A stretch of DNA of 64,000 nt from an uncultured Gammaproteobacteria bacterium. Its GTDB lineage: Bacteria; Patescibacteriota; Patescibacteriia; UBA11705; JABHMO01. Location of the stretch: contig CAZPYM010000003.1 of NCBI GenBank assembly GCA_964590105.1, positions 8,179 to 72,178 of the forward strand. The letters run 5' to 3'. Position 1 is the stretch's first letter; each line of letters begins with the position of its first letter. The position numbers and the translations under genes were made by a program. This document shows, piece by piece, positions 5,010-17,596 of the stretch. The notes under the pieces were generated by a model that was given only the letters and a program-made list of their open reading frames with translations, was not told the origin of the DNA and ran no database searches.

Positions 5010-5052
5010 TAAAATTGTAATTTGAATATTGACAATTAATGGAGGAAGAAAG

Positions 5053-5889
5053 ATGAAGGAATTCGTACTGGATTCTGTGACCAAGATGGATGCGGTGTGC
5101 TGGCTGTTTGTCCTGGCCTTTTTCTGCGGCTGCGCTCTGCTGTGCGGCGGTGATGTCAGAATGGCGTTCATCGGAGCCTGGGGCGTGATCGGCACGATGT
5201 TTCTGATCAGCGTCTCAATCGAGATGATCATCGAAACGCTGAAGAACATGCGCGGACTTGGGACTATCGTAGGATTCATTACAAATGGTCCGGAAGCCCT
5301 GTGTCTGATCGTCGGCTTACTGGCTGGCGACGTGCTGTTCGCGGCTTCCACGCCGCTCGGCTCGAACTTCATGAATCCAGTTCTTTTGGTGATTGCCGCG
5401 ATAGTGACAAAGCGAGCGATCGCTACCTGGCGGACGAACAGAGCGTACAGTCTGACCTGCATTGGACTCACGGCTGCATTTGCCGCGGAGTTTTATTTCC
5501 TGCCGGAAAAGCTTTATTGGATTTGGTGGGGAGCGGCGGCGATCATGACGGCTGTCCTGTTTTTTTGGCGGCCGAAAGAGAAAGAGCCTGAGAGCAAGGA
5601 AGAAGCCGCTTTTTCCAAGCTGTGGCTGATTCCCGCAGTGGCAGTAATGCTTACGGCCGGATATTTCCTGGATCCGGTCGTGTCATTCGCTTCGGCGCAA
5701 TCACATGCGCCGAAAAATCTCATCGGGTTCTTGGTTTTGGCCACGCTTACCAGCTGGCCGGAATTCAAGTCCTGCCTGGTCCTTTTCCGAAGGGGCCGAG
5801 TGCTCTCCGCGATTCTCAATATCACGGTGAGCAACATTACCAACATCTGGCTGGCAATGCTCGGTGCCGGGATCTACCTCGTTTTCTAA
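5053..5889 (+). CDS. multi-pass membrane protein, Ca2+/cation antiporter (CaCA)-like; GC-rich gene
   Basis: Start taken at the ATG (5053) preceded by GGAGGAAGAAAG, rather than the track's 5029. Two alpha-repeat-like segments, 'GFITNGPEALCLIVGLLAG' and 'ATLTSWPEF', resemble the G(T/S)SxPE motifs of YrbG/CaCA exchangers. GC content is visibly about 55%, against about 38% in the surroundings. Confidence 0.55.
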   Translation: MKEFVLDSVTKMDAVCWLFVLAFFCGCALLCGGDVRMAFIGAWGVIGTMFLISVSIEMIIETLKNMRGLGTIVGFITNGPEALCLIVGLLAGDVLFAASTPLGSNFMNPVLLVIAAIVTKRAIATWRTNRAYSLTCIGLTAAFAAEFYFLPEKLYWIWWGAAAIMTAVLFFWRPKEKEPESKEEAAFSKLWLIPAVAVMLTAGYFLDPVVSFASAQSHAPKNLIGFLVLATLTSWPEFKSCLVLFRRGRVLSAILNITVSNITNIWLAMLGAGIYLVF

Positions 5890-6214: not shown

Positions 6215-6275
6215 GGGTACTTAGCTCAGTCGGTTAGAGCGTACGGTTCACATCCGTAAGATCACAGGTTCGAGC
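6215..6275 (+). pseudogene. truncated tRNA-Val(CAC)-like 5' fragment (acceptor 5' half through T-loop; no 3' T-stem or acceptor strand)
   Basis: gggtact-ta-gctc-agtcggtta-gagc-g-tacgg-ttCACat-ccgta-agatc-acagg-ttcgagc is followed by ataatgcc..., not by cctgt + agtaccc. The cloverleaf cannot be closed. Confidence 0.55.
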
Positions 6276-6384
6276 ATAATGCCTCACGGTTTATAAATGG
6301 AAGCTAAAATCGATAAGATAGAGTTTAGTAGTTTTCGGTCTCCATGTCACTATTTATTAGGCAGTTAAATTTTTATAATTTTAT

Positions 6385-6971: not shown

Positions 6972-7048
6972 GGTTGCTTAGCTCAGTTGGTTAGAGCGCT
7001 GCACTCACATTGCAGAGGTCCTGGGTTCAAATCCCAGAGCAACCACCA
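6972..7048 (+). tRNA. tRNA-Val (anticodon CAC)
   Basis: Acceptor ggttgct/agcaacc, D-arm gctcagttggttagagc, anticodon stem-loop ctgca-ctCACat-tgcag, T-arm ctggg-ttcaaat-cccag, CCA encoded. Confidence 0.9.
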
Positions 7049-7136
7049 AACTTTTAATCATTTAAACAAAAAACATTTATTTACTACTGGTTTTACTTAT
7101 TTTTTTTATAATTCATTATTAATTTATATTTATTTT

Positions 7137-10100
7137 ATGAAGGAAAAATCGCTGTTTGCGCAAAATGAAGAAAAAATAATTAATTATTGGGAAGAGAAAA
7201 ATATTTTCCAAAAAACTTTGGACAAAAAATCAGCCAAAGGCAATTTTATTTTTTTTGAAGGCCCGCCGACCGCCAATGGGAAACCTGGTATTCATCATAT
7301 TCTAGCGCGCGCTTTCAAAGATGTTATTCCGCGGTTCAAAACAATGCAAGGCTATCATGTTGAAAGAAAAGCCGGCTGGGATACGCACGGCCTGCCGGTT
7401 GAGCTTCAGGTTGAAAAAGAACTGAAAATTTCTGGTAAACCGGACATTGAAAAATATGGGATTGAAGAATTTAATACTAAATGCAAGGAAAGCGTTTGGA
7501 AATATAAAAAAGAATGGGAAGAAATGACTCGACGGATTGCTTTTTGGTTGGACATGGAAGATCCATATGTCACTTATTCCAATGATTATATTGAAACGCT
7601 GTGGTGGATTTTGAGTGAAGCAAATAAAAAGGGTTTGGTTTATAAAGGTTACAAAGTTGTTCCTCAATGTCCGCGTTGCGGCACGGCTCTTTCTTCGCAC
7701 GAAGTGGCACAAGGTTACAAAAACGTGGAGGAAAATTCAGTTTATCTTAAATTCAAAGTTAAAGGCGAACAAAATACTTATATTCTTTCGTGGACAACAA
7801 CGCCGTGGACATTGCCCGGAAATGTGGCGCTCGCAGTTGGAGAAAAAATTGATTATGTGAAAGTTGATTATCAGGGAGACAAATTAATTTTAGCCAAGGC
7901 TTTGATTAATGATGTTTTTGACGGGCCAGTAAAAGTTGTTGAAGAAATAAAAGGAGCAGATTTGGTTGGCTTGGAATATGAACCATTGTTCCCGGGCGCA
8001 TTAGATCCCGGCGACAAAAAAGCCTGGTACGTTGGCAAGGCGGATTTTGTTTCAATTACAGACGGCACGGGCGTGGTGCATACGGCGGTAATGTATGGTG
8101 AAGATGATTTTCAATTTGGTTTGGAAAATGATTTGCCGTTTGTTCATACTGTGGAAGAAGACGGGACGTTCAAGCCGAGTGTTGCAAAGTGGGCGGGAAA
8201 GTTTGTCAAAGATCCGGAAGTTGAAAAACAAATTGTTAATGATTTAAAAGAACGCGGTTTATTATTCAAGGAAAAAATATACGCGCATGATTATCCTTTT
8301 TGCTGGCGTTGCGACAGTCCGCTCCTTTATTACGCGAAAGATTCTTGGTTTATAAAAATGACAGCCTTGAAAAATGAGATGATTGATAATAATGAGCAAA
8401 CCAACTGGGTGCCTGAACATATTAAGCACGGTCGTTTTGGTGAATGGTTGGAAAATATCAAAGACTGGGCAATTTCGCGGCAGCGATATTGGGGTACGCC
8501 GATCCCGATCTGGGAATGCGAAGATTGCAAAGCGTTTGAAGTGATTGGTAGTTTTGAAGATTTGGGCCAAAAAGCGTGTAAAAAAATTACCAGCCTGCTT
8601 TTTGTGAGACATGCGGAGAGCGAGAAAAACGTTCTGGGTTTTAAATCCTGTAGCTTAGACAAGCATCCGCTCACGAAAAAGGGAATTAAACAGGCGGAGC
8701 AAATGTCCGGACAATTGAACAAAGTTGATTTAATTATTTCGTCGCCGGTTTTGCGGGCGAGGCAAACGGCGGAAATAATAAGTAAAAAACTAAAAGTGGA
8801 GGTTGTTTTTGACGAATTGATTTCTGAGCATAATGTCGGGAAGTGGAATGATATTTTGAAAGAGGATTTGGAGAAAGATAATAAAGAGTATGGCGAATAC
8901 AGCCAGTTGCAGGGAGAACGAAAATATGATTTCAAGTCCGGCATTGATGGAGAATCTCGCCGGGAAGTTGTGGCGCGGGCAGAAAAATTTATAAAGAACG
9001 TAGTATCAAAGTACGCTGGTAAAACGGTCCTGATTGTTGGGCACGGTTGTACCTACGGAGCCTTTTCCAAAGTAATAAATAATTGCAGTTATGAGGAGTT
9101 TTTCCAAAAAGAAAACATTAAATTCCAAAACGTAAAAAGTTTTCAATTGGATGAGGATGGAAAATTGTTTGATCCGCACAAGCCGTTCATTGATTCATAT
9201 GAGTACGGTTGCAAATGCGGTGGCCGGATGAAGCGCGTGCCGGATGTTTTTGATTGTTGGTTTGATTCCGGCGCCATGCCTTTTGCTCAGTATCATTATC
9301 CGTTTGAAAATAAAAAATTAATTGACGCGGGCGAGCAGTATCCAGCGGAATATATTTCCGAAGCAATTGATCAGACGCGGGGCTGGTTTTACACTTTGCT
9401 CGCGATTTCCACTTTGCTTGGCAAGGGCGCCTGTTATAAAAATGTGATTTGCCTGGGGCATATTCGCGATAAGGAAGGAAAGAAAATGAGTAAATCAAAA
9501 GGCAATGTTATTGATCCCATGACAATCATTGACCAGTATGGAGTTGATGCTTTGCGCATGCATTTGTATACGATCAATCAGCCGGGCGATCCAAAGAATT
9601 TTGATGAGAACTCGGTTAAAGATGTTTTGCGGAAAACTGTAATGCTTCTTGGAAACGTGGTTAACTTCTATATGATGTATGGGGAAGGTAAAAGTCCAAA
9701 GATAAAAGGTAAAAGTAATAATGTGCTGGATGTATGGATCGGAGCAAAATTAAATTTGTTGATTCAAGATGTGACAAAAGATTTGGAAGATTATCATATT
9801 TTCGAGGCGGCCAGAAATATTATTGAATTTATTGATGAGCTTTCGACCTGGTACGTGCGGCGTTCGCGCGAGCGATTTAAAGCTGAGGGCGAAGATAAGG
9901 AAAATGCGGTGGCAACTTTGAATTTAGTTTTGGGTGAACTGGTGAAATTAATCGCGCCGTTTATGCCATTTGCCGCGGAAAGTTTTTATCAGAAACTTGG
10001 CAATGAAAAAGAATCAGTCCATTTGGAAGACTGGCCGGTGTTTGATGAAAAATTAATTGATGAAACTGTTTTGAAAGACATGGAATTAGCTCGGCAAGTT

Positions 10101-10583
10101 GTTGAACTTGGATTGTCTGCGCGTGATGAAAAACAAATTAAGGTTCGACAGCCATTGCAAACACTTGAATACGATGGAAAGAAATTTGACAAGGATTTAG
10201 AACAAATAATTGCGGAAGAGCTGAATGTTAAAAACGTTGAAAATGTAAAAGTTGTACAAGGTGATAATTTGGTTATCAAAGAAGCGGGGGGCGTTGTAGT
10301 TGGATTAAACATTGAATTAACTGAAGAACTTAAACTTGAAGGACTGGTTCGTGAATTAACTCGTCAGATAAACAATCTTCGCAAAAATCAGGGATTAACC
10401 AGGGATGATCAGGTTAAATTGATTTATAGCACAGAGGGCGAGCAGTTGAAAAAACTTTTTGCCAATGCCGAATCAGTTGAAAGGTTGAAGCAGGCGACTT
10501 TGTTGTCCGGAGTTGAAGAGGGTAAGGGAGCGAATAAGGTTAAAGTGAATGATGAAGAGGTTGAAGTAGAACTATTGAAATAA
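7137..10583 (+). CDS. ileS: isoleucine--tRNA ligase (type 2 / eukaryote-like IleRS) with an inserted histidine-phosphatase (PGAM-like) domain
   Basis: The track ORF (6987..) begins inside the tRNA-Val; the ATG at 7137 (MKEKSLFAQNEEKIINYWEE) is the plausible start. Class I motifs are present: 'PTANGKPGIHH' (HIGH), 'WDTHGLP', 'WISRQRYWGTPIPIW', 'DCWFDSGAMPFAQ', 'GIDQTRGWFYT', 'KMSKSKGN'. Between 'IGSFEDL' and 'DPHKPFID...CKCGGRMKRVP' lies a roughly 190-aa insert containing 'LLFVRHAESEKN...PLTKKGIKQAEQ...SSPVLRARQTAEII...LIVGHGCTYGAF'. Confidence 0.9.
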   Translation: MKEKSLFAQNEEKIINYWEEKNIFQKTLDKKSAKGNFIFFEGPPTANGKPGIHHILARAFKDVIPRFKTMQGYHVERKAGWDTHGLPVELQVEKELKISGKPDIEKYGIEEFNTKCKESVWKYKKEWEEMTRRIAFWLDMEDPYVTYSNDYIETLWWILSEANKKGLVYKGYKVVPQCPRCGTALSSHEVAQGYKNVEENSVYLKFKVKGEQNTYILSWTTTPWTLPGNVALAVGEKIDYVKVDYQGDKLILAKALINDVFDGPVKVVEEIKGADLVGLEYEPLFPGALDPGDKKAWYVGKADFVSITDGTGVVHTAVMYGEDDFQFGLENDLPFVHTVEEDGTFKPSVAKWAGKFVKDPEVEKQIVNDLKERGLLFKEKIYAHDYPFCWRCDSPLLYYAKDSWFIKMTALKNEMIDNNEQTNWVPEHIKHGRFGEWLENIKDWAISRQRYWGTPIPIWECEDCKAFEVIGSFEDLGQKACKKITSLLFVRHAESEKNVLGFKSCSLDKHPLTKKGIKQAEQMSGQLNKVDLIISSPVLRARQTAEIISKKLKVEVVFDELISEHNVGKWNDILKEDLEKDNKEYGEYSQLQGERKYDFKSGIDGESRREVVARAEKFIKNVVSKYAGKTVLIVGHGCTYGAFSKVINNCSYEEFFQKENIKFQNVKSFQLDEDGKLFDPHKPFIDSYEYGCKCGGRMKRVPDVFDCWFDSGAMPFAQYHYPFENKKLIDAGEQYPAEYISEAIDQTRGWFYTLLAISTLLGKGACYKNVICLGHIRDKEGKKMSKSKGNVIDPMTIIDQYGVDALRMHLYTINQPGDPKNFDENSVKDVLRKTVMLLGNVVNFYMMYGEGKSPKIKGKSNNVLDVWIGAKLNLLIQDVTKDLEDYHIFEAARNIIEFIDELSTWYVRRSRERFKAEGEDKENAVATLNLVLGELVKLIAPFMPFAAESFYQKLGNEKESVHLEDWPVFDEKLIDETVLKDMELARQVVELGLSARDEKQIKVRQPLQTLEYDGKKFDKDLEQIIAEELNVKNVENVKVVQGDNLVIKEAGGVVVGLNIELTEELKLEGLVRELTRQINNLRKNQGLTRDDQVKLIYSTEGEQLKKLFANAESVERLKQATLLSGVEEGKGANKVKVNDEEVEVELLK

Positions 10584-12168: not shown

Positions 12169-12197
12169 TTGACAAAATTATAGTTATGTGCTATACT
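12169..12197 (+). promoter_or_regulatory. consensus promoter TTGACA-N17-TATACT
   Basis: ttgacaaaattatagttatgtgctatact, immediately upstream of a roughly 600-nt GC-rich non-coding stretch. Confidence 0.55.
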
Positions 12198-12203
12198 GTG
12201 GGC

Positions 12204-12808
12204 GCGATTGTAGCTGATGAGAGCTGGCTACGCAACGTCTTTGTGAAGGGCTTCGGCACCCTAAATATGGGGTGCGGGAGCATGGTCAAAAACCTGCGGC
12301 GAAAAAGGAGGAAAGAATGTGTCGATAGAGGAAGCGTCTCGGAATTGTAAGCCGCCGAGGCGTGGATACAGGGGATGAAAATTCCTGAGGGTTTACCGGC
12401 GCAAGTGCATAAGCGCGCAATATGTGCGTGGGATGTGGCCTGTTGGATCAGTGAAAGCAAGTAAGCGGCCAGCAAAAAACTGAATGCCGTTTGAAAGCAA
12501 GTAATTGGGTTAATGGGCTCCCTGGTGACAGGGAATGACTGCATCCATGTCGGAGTCTCTTTCCCGTGGCTCGCGGCGGCTGTAATAGTCCACCGTAAAT
12601 CGCACTGGGAAATGTCAGGTTCCGGCGCGTCGTTAGGTTCGCCACCAAAGCACTCGAGGCGCAAGTTTGTCAGCGGCGCTGTGCCGGTTAAACAGCGAAA
12701 CTGAATAGGTTTTTCCTGGACGCCGAGAATGAGATCAGGACTCCGGACGCGGAGGCAAATAATACGTTTCTGGGACGAGTCGCAACATGCGGCTCGTCCC
12801 AATTTTTT
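12204..12808 (+). ncRNA. rnpB: candidate RNase P RNA (bacterial type A-like), possibly with leader/insertions
   Basis: A GC-rich block of ~600 nt (~55% GC) with no convincing ORF, framed by the promoter and a strong terminator (GGGACGAG-tcgcaacatgcgg-CTCGTCCC-aaTTTTTTT, 12772-12809). Several segments resemble conserved E. coli M1 RNA regions:
- AGGAGGAAAG, near CR-I GGAAAG
- GGAUCAGUGAAAGCAAGUAAGCGG, compared with GGAUCAGGUAAGGGUGAAAGGGUGCGGUAAGAGCG
- GGCUGUAAUAGUCCACCGUAAAUCGCAC, compared with GGCUGGUAACAGUCCGUGGCACGGUAAACUCCAC
- ACAGCGAAACUGAAUAGG, compared with GCAAGGCCAAAUAGGGG
- CAGGACUCCGGAC, compared with ACAGAACCCGGCU
The P4 pairing could not be verified by hand. Confidence 0.5.
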
Positions 12809-12962
12809 TGTTTGTAAAAAATGAAGTTTGTGATAGTATTAAAGAAGATAAGGTGGACTTCTTGGCCGTGCGGCGGATCGCCGCAAAAGCGTTGTTGAAT
12901 TTATAGTTTTTAATTTTGGATTTTGTTTGGACTTTGGACTTTGAACTTTGAGTTTTAAAAAT

Positions 12963-13592
12963 ATGGACATTGGGATTGAAAGAGCTGTTACTAATTCAAA
13001 AAAAGGATTTTCCAGATTCGGGAGAAGAGTAATTTTTATTTTTTTGATTTTTTGTTTTATTGTTTTATTGATTTTGTGGCGCGTTCAGTTTAAATACAGT
13101 TACAAAATAATTAATGGTAATGATCTGACTCCGCCAAACATTGGTTTGGTTTTTGGCGCGGGGCTGAAAGCCAAGGGCGTGCCGGGAGCAGTTCTGGAAG
13201 ATCGAATTTTAACTGCGATTAAACTTTATCAGGACGGAAAGATCGGAAAGTTTATTTTTAGCGGCGACAACAGCACCGCCGGACATAATGAAGTAAAGGC
13301 CATGAAGAATCTGGCGATAGAACTGGGATTGCCGGAAGACGCTATTTTGGAAGACCATGCCGGCCTTAGTACGCGGGAAAGCTGTTTGCATGTGAAAGAA
13401 AATTTTGGATTAAGCGAAATAATTTTAATAACTCAGAAATATCATTTGCGTCGGGCGCTTTATACTTGTAATGAACTTGGAATTGACGCGGAGGGCGTAG
13501 CGGCGGAAAATCGCGGCTATCCTAATCAATGGAAATACAGCCTTCGCGAGCTTGGCGCCAGCGTAGCGGCGTGGCTTAAAATAAAAGGCTGA
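12963..13592 (+). CDS. DUF218 / YdcF-SanA family protein with N-terminal TM
   Basis: 'GDNSTAGHNEVKAMK' and 'LITQKYHLRRAL' are typical of the YdcF/ElyC fold. The ATG at 12963 is preferred over the upstream TTG at 12948. Confidence 0.6.
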   Translation: MDIGIERAVTNSKKGFSRFGRRVIFIFLIFCFIVLLILWRVQFKYSYKIINGNDLTPPNIGLVFGAGLKAKGVPGAVLEDRILTAIKLYQDGKIGKFIFSGDNSTAGHNEVKAMKNLAIELGLPEDAILEDHAGLSTRESCLHVKENFGLSEIILITQKYHLRRALYTCNELGIDAEGVAAENRGYPNQWKYSLRELGASVAAWLKIKG

Positions 13593-13667
13593 TTGGTTGT
13601 TGGCTGAGGCAGTTTCATTTTGATCAACCAATTAACCAATTAACTAATTAACCAATTAATAATAATT

Positions 13668-14609
13668 ATGACTGTAGAACAAATTTTCAACCTGGCAATT
13701 CAACTTGGAATCAAGGCTGACCTGCGCGGCGAGAAGCGCGTCTTGCATTTGCAAAAAAAGCTGAAAGAAAAATACGAAAAATTAACAGCGGACAAGAAAA
13801 AAGATTTTGACAAAAGTCGATTAGATAATCCGTATCCTGATTCGCAGATTTTGTTTGATTCAAAAAAAGAAGTTAAGAAAGTTTTGTGCGGCATTGATAT
13901 TGACACTTCAGAATTGCTGTTAGCCAAGGAATTGGGCGACATTGATTTGGTAATATCGCATCATCCTATTGGTAAGGGACTGGCTAATTTGGCGGACGTC
14001 ATGCCTTTGCAGGTGGAAGTTCTGGCGGATTACGGCGTGCCGATTAATATTGCGGAGGGCTGTTTTAAAATGCGAATTGACGAGGTGGCGCGCGGCGTCA
14101 GTCCGATCAATCATTACAAAACCGTTGATTCGGCGACTCTTTTGAAGATCAGCCTCATGTGCGCGCATACGCCGTGCGACAATTTAGTGGCGTCATTTTT
14201 GAAAGATAAAATTCTCCGTAAAAAATTTGAATATGTATCTGAGGTTCTGGAATTATTGGAAAGTATCCCGGAATATGCCGAAGCAAAAAAAAGAGGCGCG
14301 GGGCCCAGGTTGTTTGCCGGGTCGTCGGAAAATTTTTGCGGCAAAATCGCCTTGACCGAAATTACCGGCGGCACGGAAGGCTCGGCAAAAATTTATGAAA
14401 AAATGGCGCAGGCTGGGATCGGCACGATCATTGGCATGCATATGAGCGAGGAGCACAAAAAAGAAGCGGAAAAAAATCATATCAACGCCATTGTCGCCGG
14501 CCATATTTCTTCGGATTCAATCGGTGTGAATTTATTTTTGGATCAATTGGAGAAAAAAGGGATTAAAGTGATAACAAATTCCGGTTTGATTCGGGTGAAG
14601 CGGAAATAA
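13668..14609 (+). CDS. Nif3-like dinuclear metal centre protein (GTP cyclohydrolase 1 type 2 homolog)
   Basis: 'DLVISHHP' (metal-binding HH, compare E. coli YbgI 'VIVHHG') and C-terminal 'AGHISSDS' (compare AGHHATE). Confidence 0.65.
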   Translation: MTVEQIFNLAIQLGIKADLRGEKRVLHLQKKLKEKYEKLTADKKKDFDKSRLDNPYPDSQILFDSKKEVKKVLCGIDIDTSELLLAKELGDIDLVISHHPIGKGLANLADVMPLQVEVLADYGVPINIAEGCFKMRIDEVARGVSPINHYKTVDSATLLKISLMCAHTPCDNLVASFLKDKILRKKFEYVSEVLELLESIPEYAEAKKRGAGPRLFAGSSENFCGKIALTEITGGTEGSAKIYEKMAQAGIGTIIGMHMSEEHKKEAEKNHINAIVAGHISSDSIGVNLFLDQLEKKGIKVITNSGLIRVKRK

Positions 14610-14675
14610 TTAAATAGAGGATACAAAAAGATGCTGTTGAAAATTCAGCATCTTTTTTATTAAAGATGTTTGGGA

Positions 14676-15080
14676 TTAGTCTACGGTTTGGAGGATAGCT
14701 TGTGAAGAAACCGTCTGAGCTTTCCCTAAATATTTTTTATTCAGATCTTCGATTGCCAGATAATATTCATCCCAGAGGTTGTCTTTGCTTGTCAGGTCAG
14801 TCGGAGGAATAGCTTTTATTTTTAGGCGCAGAGCGTCGGCCAGAGCTTTTTTCTTTTGTTTTAATTCTAATGACAGTTCATCAAAGCCCGTACTGATTGT
14901 CGCTGTTGCGGTCAGCGCTTTTGTTGTCCTATTTTCAACTTCTCTCGCCAAGGCGGCATCGAGCGCCTGATAAAAAGAATCAGTAGCGCCTTCTTTTTCA
15001 AATAAATCAATAAAGGTCCTTTTTTCATCATCTGTTAAAAAGGAGGTATTAATGAAATCGATTATAGTTTTTTCTTCCAT
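14676..15080 (-). CDS. hypothetical protein
   Basis: 134-aa ORF immediately downstream of the 15082 gene on the same strand; acidic/helical; no motif. Confidence 0.45.
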   Translation of the reverse strand: MEEKTIIDFINTSFLTDDEKRTFIDLFEKEGATDSFYQALDAALAREVENRTTKALTATATISTGFDELSLELKQKKKALADALRLKIKAIPPTDLTSKDNLWDEYYLAIEDLNKKYLGKAQTVSSQAILQTVD

Positions 15081-15081
15081 A

Positions 15082-15951
15082 TTATTTTCTAAAAGTGTTT
15101 AGATACAAAGCTGCGGTTTTTCCGCTGGCCCCAAATAGTTTGGCGGCGGCGGCTGTGCCTGCGCCAAGAGCTTTTAGTGAAGATTTCATGGCTGAGAAAA
15201 AACCATTGAGATTCCTTTGTTGCAATACCTGCCACGCTCCGCCCAGAATACCGCCGAGCATTTTCATCGGCGCATCCAGGAGCATTACTTGTAACGATTC
15301 AGCGGAAGTTTTTTTGAGTTGTTCAAGGGATTTTTCAAATTGCAATTCCCTTCCAAACATTCGTTCGTGTTTTTCCAGGTTTTGTTTTGATTGAAAAAGT
15401 TTTCCGATATCAGCGCCCATTTCCGGATGGGATCGTAAAAGTGCTTCAAGGTCGTCCGTATTAGACATATTGCTTGTGATGTCCAGATTTAGGCGCCTTA
15501 ATAATCGATTCATCATTTCAATGTTTTCAGCTGAATCCTCAATAATCGCCCGGTCAGGTGCGTCGCCGTTAAATTTTTTTTGATAATATTTTTCTTGTTG
15601 TTTTTCCTGAGCCGCTGAAACAGAGAAAGTTAAATTGCGAAATACGGCCGGATTTTTAGCATCTGTTGTTGCCCTGTCTGTTGCTGATTTTGATAAAGTT
15701 TCATTAATTGCCGCTTGGAAATCGCGCCATTTTTTTGAATCAGAATCCAGGGCGCCAGTTCTGGTTTCCCGGCCGACGGAGCTAATGTAATCGTTAAAAA
15801 TTTTTTTTTCTGCAACTTCTCTTGTCGTGCCATGATCTCGCGCATAGTCATCAACCGTATTGCGGAATTTTACCTCCGGTCCGCGACCGACGATTTTTTC
15901 GCCGGTTTCCTTGAGAAATTTGCCTGCTTTTTCGAACACCATATGATTCAA
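15082..15951 (-). CDS. hypothetical protein
   Basis: 289-aa ORF with coiled-coil-like composition; no motif recognised. Confidence 0.45.
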   Translation of the reverse strand: MNHMVFEKAGKFLKETGEKIVGRGPEVKFRNTVDDYARDHGTTREVAEKKIFNDYISSVGRETRTGALDSDSKKWRDFQAAINETLSKSATDRATTDAKNPAVFRNLTFSVSAAQEKQQEKYYQKKFNGDAPDRAIIEDSAENIEMMNRLLRRLNLDITSNMSNTDDLEALLRSHPEMGADIGKLFQSKQNLEKHERMFGRELQFEKSLEQLKKTSAESLQVMLLDAPMKMLGGILGGAWQVLQQRNLNGFFSAMKSSLKALGAGTAAAAKLFGASGKTAALYLNTFRK

Positions 15952-16420
15952 GAATTATATCTGTAATATGTTTCGATTATAGCTGAAATAACTGTTGTTG
16001 TAAATAAGATTCGATCTTTATCGACTTATGACAAAAGAGTGGCGATTTCATCGTCTATGCCATAGAACCATTTGGATTTTATATAATGAAAAAGGTATTA
16101 TTGACAAATTGCAGCATTTTAGCTATTATTTAATGTTGACGTAACAGATTAAATTTAGTTTCGTCATATATAATGTATGAATTGGAATAAACACAATTAT
16201 CTTATGGTCATGGGCACTGATTGCACATCAGCTGCTGTTTTTGGCATTCAGCCGAAAACAAGCAAAGCTGGTTTGACCAGAAAGATTATTGGGATAATTG
16301 TGTTTAAATATTTAAACTAGATTCTTCTTCCATAACCAATAATGCGTCTGGCCGGATCGGCTTGACGCATTTTTGATTGCGTACAGGACGGTTTGCCAAA
16401 AAAACAATGGAGGTGTCGCT

Positions 16421-17596
16421 ATGGTGCGAAAAATTGTCCGCAGCTATCTGATTTTTAATGTTCTTTTCAATTTAGCTTTTTCTTTTCACTTCGCTACGTT
16501 TGTGCTGTTTTTGCGCCGCAATGATATGAGTATAACGCAAATCGGCTTTATTAATTTTGCTTTTATGATTGCGGTTTTTTTGTTTGAAATTCCGACCGGC
16601 GTGGTGGCGGATCGTTTTGGCCGCAAAGTATCGGTTGTGCTCGGCACGTTTGTGGCCAGTCTCGGGTTTTTGTTTTATTTTTTGAGCAATGGTTTTTGGC
16701 AATTTATTTTGTCGGAAAGCACGATCGCTCTCGGATCCAGTTTAATTTCAGGCGCGCTGGATGCTTGGATTAAGGATTCGCTGGATTTAAATGGCTACAA
16801 AAAAGACATTGGCGTTATTTTTTCCTGGGGCGATATAGCTATCAAGGGCGCCAGCTTGGCCGGCGGAGTGGTCGGCGGAATTATTGCCGTGGGAAATATC
16901 CGATTGCCCTGGCTCATGTCATCAATCGGGCTCGTGATTTGCGGAATTGTGGCGTTGAAAATAATTCGCGAGGATTATTTTACCGACAAAAAAACATCCA
17001 TGATGGATATTTGTCGGCAAAGCGTGCGCTATGGATATAAAAACAAACAGATCTGGACATTGATCTTGATAGGAAGCCTGCTGATGTTTTTTTTCCAGCC
17101 CTTAAACATGCAGTGGTCAATTCTGTTTGACCAAGCTTATGGAATCGGCGTTCTTTGGTTGGTCTGGACCGGTATCAGAGTTTTTGAGATGGTCGGTATT
17201 TTTATTGCCGGCAAACTAATGAATAGAGGATTTGATCGAGCTCGGATCATGTCATTCTCTATAATTCTGACCGGCGCGGCGATTGTTCTGGCGTCTATTG
17301 TGCCTTATGCTGGCCTGACACTGTTCGCTTTCTGGATTCACGAATCCGGAAGAGGATTTTTCGCGCCGACGCAAAAAGCCTATCTGCATGACAATATTCC
17401 GTCGGACAAGCGGGCGACCATTGGTTCTTTTAATTCAATGATTGCAAAGCTTGGCGCGGCCGCAGGTTGGCTCGGCGGCGGACTTCTTGCCGAAGTGATA
17501 GGCATTAAACCATGCTGGCTTTTGGCCGGAATATTGCTTTTCGTCGTATTGCCATTGGTTGGAAAATTAAAAAATAAATCCAACCGGGCAATTTAA
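16421..17596 (+). CDS. MFS transporter
   Basis: 'FEIPTGVVADRFGRKVSVVLG' is the MFS signature between TM2 and TM3, with roughly 12 hydrophobic segments. The start is taken at the ATG (MVRKIV) preceded by GGAGG. Confidence 0.75.
   Translation: MVRKIVRSYLIFNVLFNLAFSFHFATFVLFLRRNDMSITQIGFINFAFMIAVFLFEIPTGVVADRFGRKVSVVLGTFVASLGFLFYFLSNGFWQFILSESTIALGSSLISGALDAWIKDSLDLNGYKKDIGVIFSWGDIAIKGASLAGGVVGGIIAVGNIRLPWLMSSIGLVICGIVALKIIREDYFTDKKTSMMDICRQSVRYGYKNKQIWTLILIGSLLMFFFQPLNMQWSILFDQAYGIGVLWLVWTGIRVFEMVGIFIAGKLMNRGFDRARIMSFSIILTGAAIVLASIVPYAGLTLFAFWIHESGRGFFAPTQKAYLHDNIPSDKRATIGSFNSMIAKLGAAAGWLGGGLLAEVIGIKPCWLLAGILLFVVLPLVGKLKNKSNRAI

Follow-up and report, generated by a model that had tools for sequence, protein, structure and literature searches.

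A histidine phosphatase domain nested in the type-2 isoleucyl-tRNA synthetase of a Patescibacteria genome and its relatives

Introduction

Domain accretion by aminoacyl-tRNA synthetases is usually portrayed as a eukaryotic trend and, to our knowledge, second catalytic domains inside the synthetase catalytic region are rare, the editing domain aside. Type-2 isoleucyl-tRNA synthetases (IleRS2), such as that of Priestia megaterium (PmIleRS2; 8c8u/8c8w) and the Thermus thermophilus enzyme (1ile), are built from a HUP core, the editing domain of connective peptide 1 (CP1), a zinc (Zn) knuckle in connective peptide 2 (CP2), and anticodon-binding and type-2 C-terminal domains. Two arrangements already place a second catalytic domain in or on an isoleucyl-tRNA synthetase (IleRS): CP1 itself, which is universal and works on the synthetase's own product, and a GNAT domain in the IleRS form modelled by NF040702. 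Here we describe an ileS gene in 64,000 nucleotides of a patescibacterial genome (GenBank assembly GCA_964590105.1, contig CAZPYM010000003.1, positions 8,179 to 72,178, hereafter the window). Its product shares the IleRS2 architecture but, unlike 8c8w, has approximately 194 extra residues that form a phosphatase between the positions of 8c8w residues 476 and 486. It also differs in domain type from the GNAT form (299 bits against a cutoff of 1999).

Domains of the RHG type have been found joined to nucleotide or nucleic-acid enzymes before, in MutT1 (NUDIX and RHG) and in the Rv2228c-type RNase H/acid phosphatase (NF005567). Those proteins are end-to-end fusions, whereas the window phosphatase is an insertion, and it matches both models poorly (MutT1 model, 21.5 bits; NF005567, 68.6 bits with a cutoff at 326). 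What the RHG domain contributes to mycobacterial MutT1 is unsettled (PMC11784022). Among solved structures, the insert resembles the small branch-1 histidine phosphatases PhoE/YhfR (1ebb, 1h2e), phosphoserine phosphatase PspA (4ij5), alpha-ribazole phosphatase CobC (6nru, 6e4b), and 9mmh in fold (TM 0.74–0.83), in length (~200 amino acids, aa), and in catalytic residues, with E-values ranging from 8e-14 for Hydrogenobacter PspA, the closest solved relative by sequence, to 3e-7 for Escherichia coli CobC (6e4b). However, the insert is just 21–28% identical to these phosphatases, which are free-standing while the insert is nested in another enzyme. Full-text literature on IleRS or tRNA synthetases with a histidine phosphatase, and on Parcubacteria synthetase fusions, yielded nothing describing this architecture, and the words phosphatase, Patescibacteria, and CPR are absent from a 2026 preprint surveying IleRS domain evolution. 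Since these sequences are publicly available with precomputed Pfam content, we regard the protein as an unremarked but widespread variant, not as a new kind of system.

Results and discussion

A complete phosphatase domain within a type-2 synthetase

The insert (aa ~481–674 with linkers; 8577..9158, + strand) is a complete branch-1 histidine phosphatase domain of the small, ~190-aa class. Pfam His_Phos_1 (PF00300) matched the full protein at 109.4 bits (gathering score 21.7, E = 2.3e-31), with its core at aa 487–657 (8595..9107, +), and the insert alone at 114.4 bits (E = 7e-33). The AlphaFold2 (AF2) model of the insert alone had a predicted local distance difference test score (pLDDT) of 96.5 and a predicted template modelling score (pTM) of 0.92. 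In Foldseek searches of the PDB, this model matched PhoE/YhfR (1ebb/1h2e) best (TM 0.82–0.83), followed by CobC (6nru), PspA (4ij6), and the riboflavin-pathway phosphatase 9mmh; dPGMs matched with larger gaps. The probability was 1.00 for PhoE, CobC, PspA, and dPGM structures. An initial annotation of the DNA, made from the sequence alone, had recognized a complete branch-1 domain on the strength of four peptides, and this was borne out: all four are in the translation (LLFVRHAESEKN, with R491-H492; PLTKKGIKQAEQ; SSPVLRARQTAEII, with R540; and LIVGHGCTYGAF, with H636), and the catalytic set (R491-H492-A, N498, R540, E564, H636) is intact. Its description of the domain as PGAM-like holds at the level of the superfamily but not for dPGM proper, given that PhoE gave the best TM and that scores were below the cutoffs of dPGM_arch (84 versus 225), GpmB (53 versus 261), and pgm_1 (32.5 versus 81.7). 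The same was true of the PspA (88 versus 350), ribazole_cobC (79 versus 163), and PRK15004 (66 versus 250) models.

The catalytic positions are near-invariant among 170 embedded copies of the domain, which are typically just ~33% identical to one another. Both residues of the RH(G/A) motif, R491-H492 (8607..8612, +), are found in 170/170 copies, and H492 is the predicted phospho-accepting nucleophile. The predicted phosphate-binding arginine R540 (8754..8756, +; equivalent to dPGM R62) is conserved in 169/170, and the second catalytic histidine H636 (9042..9044, +; dPGM H184) in 170/170. At the predicted general acid E564 (8826..8828, +; dPGM E89), 160 of the 170 have glutamate and eight have aspartate. 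Near-invariance on this scale is strong indirect evidence for catalysis and, together with retention of these residues in the multi-copy variants described below, points to selection for phosphatase chemistry.

The protein surrounding the insert is an IleRS2. It matched NCBIfam TIGR00392 (ileS) at 905 bits (cutoff 621), and Pfam tRNA-synt_1 was split around the insert, with Anticodon_1 and DUF5915 over the C-terminal part. PmIleRS2 8c8w (891 bits) and T. thermophilus IleRS (TtIleRS, 1ile) were the best sequence matches in the PDB, and type-1 enzymes scored far lower. The full-length AF2 model (pLDDT 91.9, pTM 0.84, and pLDDT 88–98 in the insert region) aligned with 8c8w along its whole length, and Foldseek TM values normalized to the target were 0.81–0.88 against the IleRS2 structures 8c8w, 1ile, and 9wqs. 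Across the sequence and fold searches, every solved IleRS lacks any counterpart of the insert at this site. While the protein is akin to MupA and MupB as an IleRS2, it is not one of those acquired resistance genes, scoring 849 and 847 bits against the exception models (cutoff 1900). Neither a second ileS nor a second phosphatase domain was found in the 64-kb window.

The initial annotation had listed the synthetase motifs as intact, which is correct for KMSKS (aa 783–787; 9483..9497, +) and WFDSG (aa 708–712); the editing motif TTTPWT is at aa 220–225. The class I signature given as HIGH is in fact in the non-canonical GXHH form, G51-I-H-H54 (7287..7298, +). This form is functional in IleRS2 and has been linked to mupirocin hyper-resistance (Brkic et al., 10.1101/2023.01.31.526100). 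It is also the majority form in the sampled Patescibacteria relatives, and is equally common in those without the insert (74/88).

Position, boundaries, and exclusion of artefacts

Alignment with the closest insert-less IleRS (P0122) and 19 other insert-less relatives, and the break in the 8c8w alignment, where the first block ends at P. megaterium residue 476 and the second begins at 486, show that the ~194-aa insert takes the place of a short loop. The corresponding alignment region has 5–14 residues in 88 insert-less relatives: P0122 has a 14-aa loop (KTGALPKNGKGE), insert-less members of its clade share the conserved loop G.LPKNKNGE.D.HRPF, and another close relative (P0020) reads VIGSFEELSELSGIKTTLKSDIHKPAIDNYEITCPSCGG where the window protein has ~190 additional residues between VIGSFEDLGQKACKKITS and KLFDPHKPFIDSYEYGCKCGG. 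The first half of the Zn knuckle, C461-E-D-C464 (8517..8528, +), lies just 5' of the insert, and the second, C692-K-C694 (9210..9218, +), just 3' of it; the CxxC is kept in most relatives, whether insert-bearing or not. The HUP catalytic core of PmIleRS2 comprises residues 40–168 and 513–632, with CP1 and CP2 between them (Brkic et al.). By comparison with this layout, we infer that CP2 accommodates the domain at a hairpin tip, between the CxxC (461–464) and the CxC (692–694) of the Zn knuckle. Boundaries are sharp, with similarity to P0122 remaining high right up to the domain edges. These positions agree with the initial annotation, which had placed the insert at 8584–9150, between the Zn-knuckle halves and in lieu of a segment of about 12 aa.

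The ileS gene (7137..10583, +) is a single open reading frame (ORF) of 1148 aa with zero internal stops, likely starting at the ATG at 7137 (MKEKSLFAQ...). A longer listed ORF (6987..10583, +) opens at a TTG located within the tRNA-Val(CAC) gene immediately 5' of ileS (6972-7048, +), and its upstream extension is therefore spurious. Artefactual origins of the nested domain (chimeric assembly, two genes fused by a frameshift, or an intein) are excluded, and we put their likelihood close to nil. The ORF is continuous, GC content shows no break across the junctions (which read KKITS/LLF and QLDEDG/KLF), and the alignments show in-frame IleRS sequence flanking the insert on either side. An identical protein (P0121) is present on five public-collection contigs of up to 594 kb, and the same junctions occur in at least 80 genomes, nearly all with intact ORFs. 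The reservation in the initial annotation that a frameshift or assembly join might have produced the insert thus did not materialize. An intein was considered and rejected, in line with the same annotation: the protein had no Pfam match to intein or Hint families, and the phosphatase fold and short linkers fill the insert. Nothing spoke in favour of an artefact other than frameshifts confined to two ENA contigs (L001 and L002), whose names carry "2x", probably denoting low coverage.

In L001 and L002, the insert-bearing ileS changes reading frame several times between segments. Recoding was considered for these two contigs and rejected, and the frame changes are read as sequencing or assembly indel errors. 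L001 additionally holds a fragmented ArgRS, and P0017, one of the two ileS products concerned, no longer has the Zn-knuckle cysteines on either side of the insert.

Distribution of the nested domain in Patescibacteria

The insert occurs at the same site in at least 150 protein clusters (50% identity). A profile of the insert and both junctions (280 positions) was searched against 1.84 billion representative sequences, yielding 278 matches at E ≤ 1e-30. Nearly all of the best 150 (E ≤ 9e-49) span the full 280-position profile unbroken, at around aa 440–750 in proteins of ~1150 aa; those that do not are fragments at contig ends or multi-copy variants. In a search with the full-length protein, approximately 35 of the best 120 clusters also have PF00300. 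Their labels are Komeili-, Pace-, or Taylorbacteria, or "Patescibacteria group", and in some cases the annotation is no more than "class I tRNA ligase family protein".

A genome scan with one genome per species identified at least 80 loci, all with the insert and its junctions and nearly all with intact ORFs of ~1150–1250 aa. Lineages represented include Parcubacteria/Paceibacteria, metagenome-assembled genomes labelled Saccharibacteria, and Peri-/Peregrinibacteria, and two of the loci are on records of a single chromosome each, one bearing the title "complete genome". The initial annotation had called for related genomes of the candidate phyla radiation to be surveyed, having presented the insert as an unusual capture, and had reasoned that the idea would fail if orthologues routinely carried an insert here. 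The phosphatase is real, but it is not a one-off: the same insertion is widespread in Patescibacteria. Orthologues do carry an insert at this site in part, yet what they carry is the same phosphatase and not a generic variable loop.

Some of these synthetases (P0247, P0248, P0285, and others) have two to four phosphatase domains, in proteins of up to ~1600 aa, and tandem copies also occur at Peribacteria loci L074, L077, and L080. The R-H-N-R-E-H set is complete or nearly so in each full-length copy, with one copy in P0247 having alanine at the asparagine position. Other small domains accompany the phosphatase in further IleRS: a NUDIX domain in the CP1 region of P0164 (recalling the NUDIX-phosphatase combination of MutT1, here within an IleRS), GNAT domains in P0358, and, in P0339, a P-loop kinase inserted at another position, following WFESGSMPYAS, with only weak, generic P-loop kinase matches.

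Gain, loss, and descent of the insert

Excluding the insert, identity between the window IleRS and P0122 (Falkow-/Kuenenbacteria) is 79.3%, and the two are sisters in a neighbour-joining (NJ) tree (bootstrap 100). In the surrounding 21-member clade (bootstrap 96), 19 members lack the insert, and the two bearers (P0121 and P0123) are not sisters; the insert is therefore dispensable for IleRS function. Parsimony on the 179-taxon NJ tree gave 14 state changes, in a tree with many weakly supported nodes and biased sampling. Patchy presence, and an insert-less IleRS at 79% identity, indicate repeated gain or loss. Comparison of the two parts of the protein adds to this, given that at 65–70% body identity the distribution of insert identity is bimodal, at ~50–60% or at a background of ~35%, suggesting that related IleRS bodies harbour phosphatases of different lineages. 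Repeated gain, loss, or swapping of the insert across Patescibacteria ileS is clear.

The history of the window insert itself can be followed in less detail. The window/P0123 pair (66.7% body and 43.9% insert identity) falls inside the spread of possibly vertical pairs, and all relevant bootstraps in the phosphatase-domain tree, whether for single versus multiple capture or for the direction between free and nested forms, are <25%. No donor ileS tract flanking the insert was visible at 40-aa resolution. The C-terminal junction FDPHKPFID alone resembles insert-bearing alleles rather than the sister P0122, which is suggestive of a trace of donor sequence. Gene order ileS ... DUF218-NIF3 ... MFS (window 12948-17596) is common to the window and the P0123 locus (L091/L092 comparison), with 71% identity for NIF3 and 53% for DUF218, and was not found within 4 kb at the P0122 locus. 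This synteny is compatible with shared ancestry of the insert-bearing locus, and is a hint that the ileS tree and the ancestry of the locus disagree.

The closest free-standing relatives are Patescibacteria proteins of 193–203 aa (P0001–P0016), which are 42–50% identical end to end. The window insert is 44–50% identical to these ~200-aa phosphatases and also to an embedded subset. Unlike the nested domain, they are encoded by separate genes away from ileS (no ileS was found within 8 kb at the two loci examined), indicating that the phosphatase has a life of its own.

Putative function of the nested phosphatase

We consider it somewhat probable (roughly 55%) that the protein is a bifunctional polypeptide, in which an IleRS2 carries an autonomous phosphomonoesterase in a permissive CP2 loop. 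Activity, autonomy, and a selective rationale for the nested phosphatase are inferred as follows. The synthetase part, a complete GXHH IleRS with an editing domain, would most likely perform ordinary tRNA-Ile charging. By superfamily analogy, the phosphatase would hydrolyse phosphomonoesters via a phospho-His492 intermediate, with R491, R540, and H636 holding the phosphate and E564 serving as the acid. It would be a housekeeping enzyme with no part in aminoacylation, and residence in a permissive loop of a protein that is both essential and constitutively produced would keep it tethered and co-expressed. The module is also evolutionarily mobile among Patescibacteria ileS genes, and some lineages have two to four copies through duplication. 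An autonomous phosphatase is favoured by the existence of near relatives without the insert, of free-standing versions, and of sharp boundaries, as well as by variable copy number and the nesting of unrelated small enzymes in the same protein family. Several observations weigh against it. All of the best 150 profile matches are at one site of one synthetase (albeit with a query that had IleRS flanks, so that other synthetases were unfairly sampled), and a fixed site could reflect a functional link to isoleucylation instead of mere permissiveness of the loop. The pTM of 0.84 for the full-length protein is a hint that the domain is held in a defined orientation instead of on a floppy tether, and the NUDIX, kinase, and GNAT domains that co-occur with it might just as well mean a shared nucleotide- or tRNA-related function. 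The insert also falls far under the cutoffs of all NCBIfam equivalogs (PspA, dPGM, CobC, GpmB, SixA), and hence no substrate is transferable from known enzymes.

Some of the same observations would fit a phosphatase coupled to aminoacylation, which we regard as a serious but less likely rival. Such an enzyme could act on Ap4A/Ap3A, AMP, pyrophosphate, or a tRNA 3'-terminal phosphate before charging (end healing). A single fixed site in CP2 of the catalytic region across at least 150 clusters, a strongly constrained active site, and the pTM of the full-length model are all in keeping with coupling, and NUDIX (P0164) and P-loop kinase (P0339) are domain types of nucleotide clean-up and of kinase-phosphatase RNA end healing, although the kinase matches in P0339 are non-specific. 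Precedents are provided by MutT1 (NUDIX and RHG, PMC11784022) and by the "bifunctional RNase H/acid phosphatase" of NF005567, but MutT1 is an uncertain guide, its RHG domain having no settled role (PMC11784022). Moreover, the sister IleRS manages without the insert, free-standing homologues are unlinked to ileS, and tandem arrays of two to four copies sit uneasily with one stoichiometric role at the end of the tRNA. A broader proposal, which we hold to be rather doubtful, is that the phosphatase is an integral extra active site and that, with NUDIX, kinase, and GNAT domains, Patescibacteria IleRS hosts the repair of tRNA ends or the removal of adenylate or dinucleotide by-products, the module spreading between ileS alleles as a mobile cassette. 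Many appended synthetase domains are non-catalytic, and the nested domain could likewise be a catalytically irrelevant structural, regulatory, or RNA-binding appendage with a phosphatase-like fold. The RHG domain of MutT1 had no phosphatase activity in assays (PMC11784022), which would suit such an appendage; near-invariance of five catalytic positions in 170 otherwise divergent copies, and the complete or nearly complete set in duplicates, make it unlikely. Self-protection at the target, in which nested phosphatase, GNAT, and NUDIX domains would counter natural inhibitors that mimic aminoacyl-adenylates or are directed at IleRS, is very improbable. The host enzyme already has the GXHH form tied to mupirocin hyper-resistance, and GNAT-bearing IleRS exist (NF040702 ileS_w_GNAT; P0358). 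GNAT and phosphoramidase enzymes are known to detoxify processed microcin C-type adenylate mimics. However, GXHH is just as common in insert-less relatives, nothing in the data points to any inhibitor, and we know of no IleRS inhibitor that is a phosphomonoester substrate of a histidine phosphatase.

Whichever role applies, an apparently active metabolic-type phosphatase is found, in up to four copies, within an essential synthetase in hundreds of lineages among the most genome-reduced bacteria. If the phosphatase is autonomous, it would be a clear natural case in which nesting holds a small enzyme to an indispensable partner, and CP2 would offer a proven permissive site for engineering. Coupling to aminoacylation would make it a new synthetase-associated activity, and an integral active site would represent prokaryotic domain accretion by an aminoacyl-tRNA synthetase with a new catalytic function. 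Annotation is affected in any case, with several nested-phosphatase IleRS named just "class I tRNA ligase family protein".

Gene neighbourhoods and other features of the window

Genes flanking ileS in the window have no phosphatase-related theme, and the neighbourhoods of the window ileS and of the free-standing homologues gave no convincing functional clue. Directly upstream of P0001 is an uncharacterized gene of ~232 aa (L083 7174-7872), and directly upstream of P0008 is a gene of ~226 aa for an APH-like protein (PF01636, a small-molecule kinase family; L086 7197-7877), so that it and P0008 may pair a kinase gene with a phosphatase gene. L086 also has HIT, Ham1, and HD genes close to P0008.

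Elsewhere in the window, a candidate large structured RNA, apparently non-coding and ~610 nt long, is located between a Fer4 gene and a DUF218 gene (12169-12810, +). The unit is GC-rich (0.53–0.56 versus ~0.36–0.42 in its flanks), has a promoter close to consensus (TTGACA-17-TATACT, 11/12, plus an extended -10 TG; 12169-12197), and ends in an intrinsic terminator with a 14-bp stem and T-run (12771-12809). Its predicted minimum free energy is -232 kcal/mol (z = -4.4 versus shuffles), and it had no Rfam match at E ≤ 0.1, no plasmid match, and no copy in the related loci compared. Rfam additionally reported a third tRNA (6215-6285, +) at 33.8 bits, just over the gathering score of 29, that is absent from the ARAGORN calls and may be divergent or degenerate. 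Lastly, a membrane-protein ORF with a weak Na_Ca_ex match (5029-5889, +), overlapped by a long antisense ORF, has a GC content of 0.53–0.56 against ~0.38 in its neighbourhood, and may be foreign DNA.

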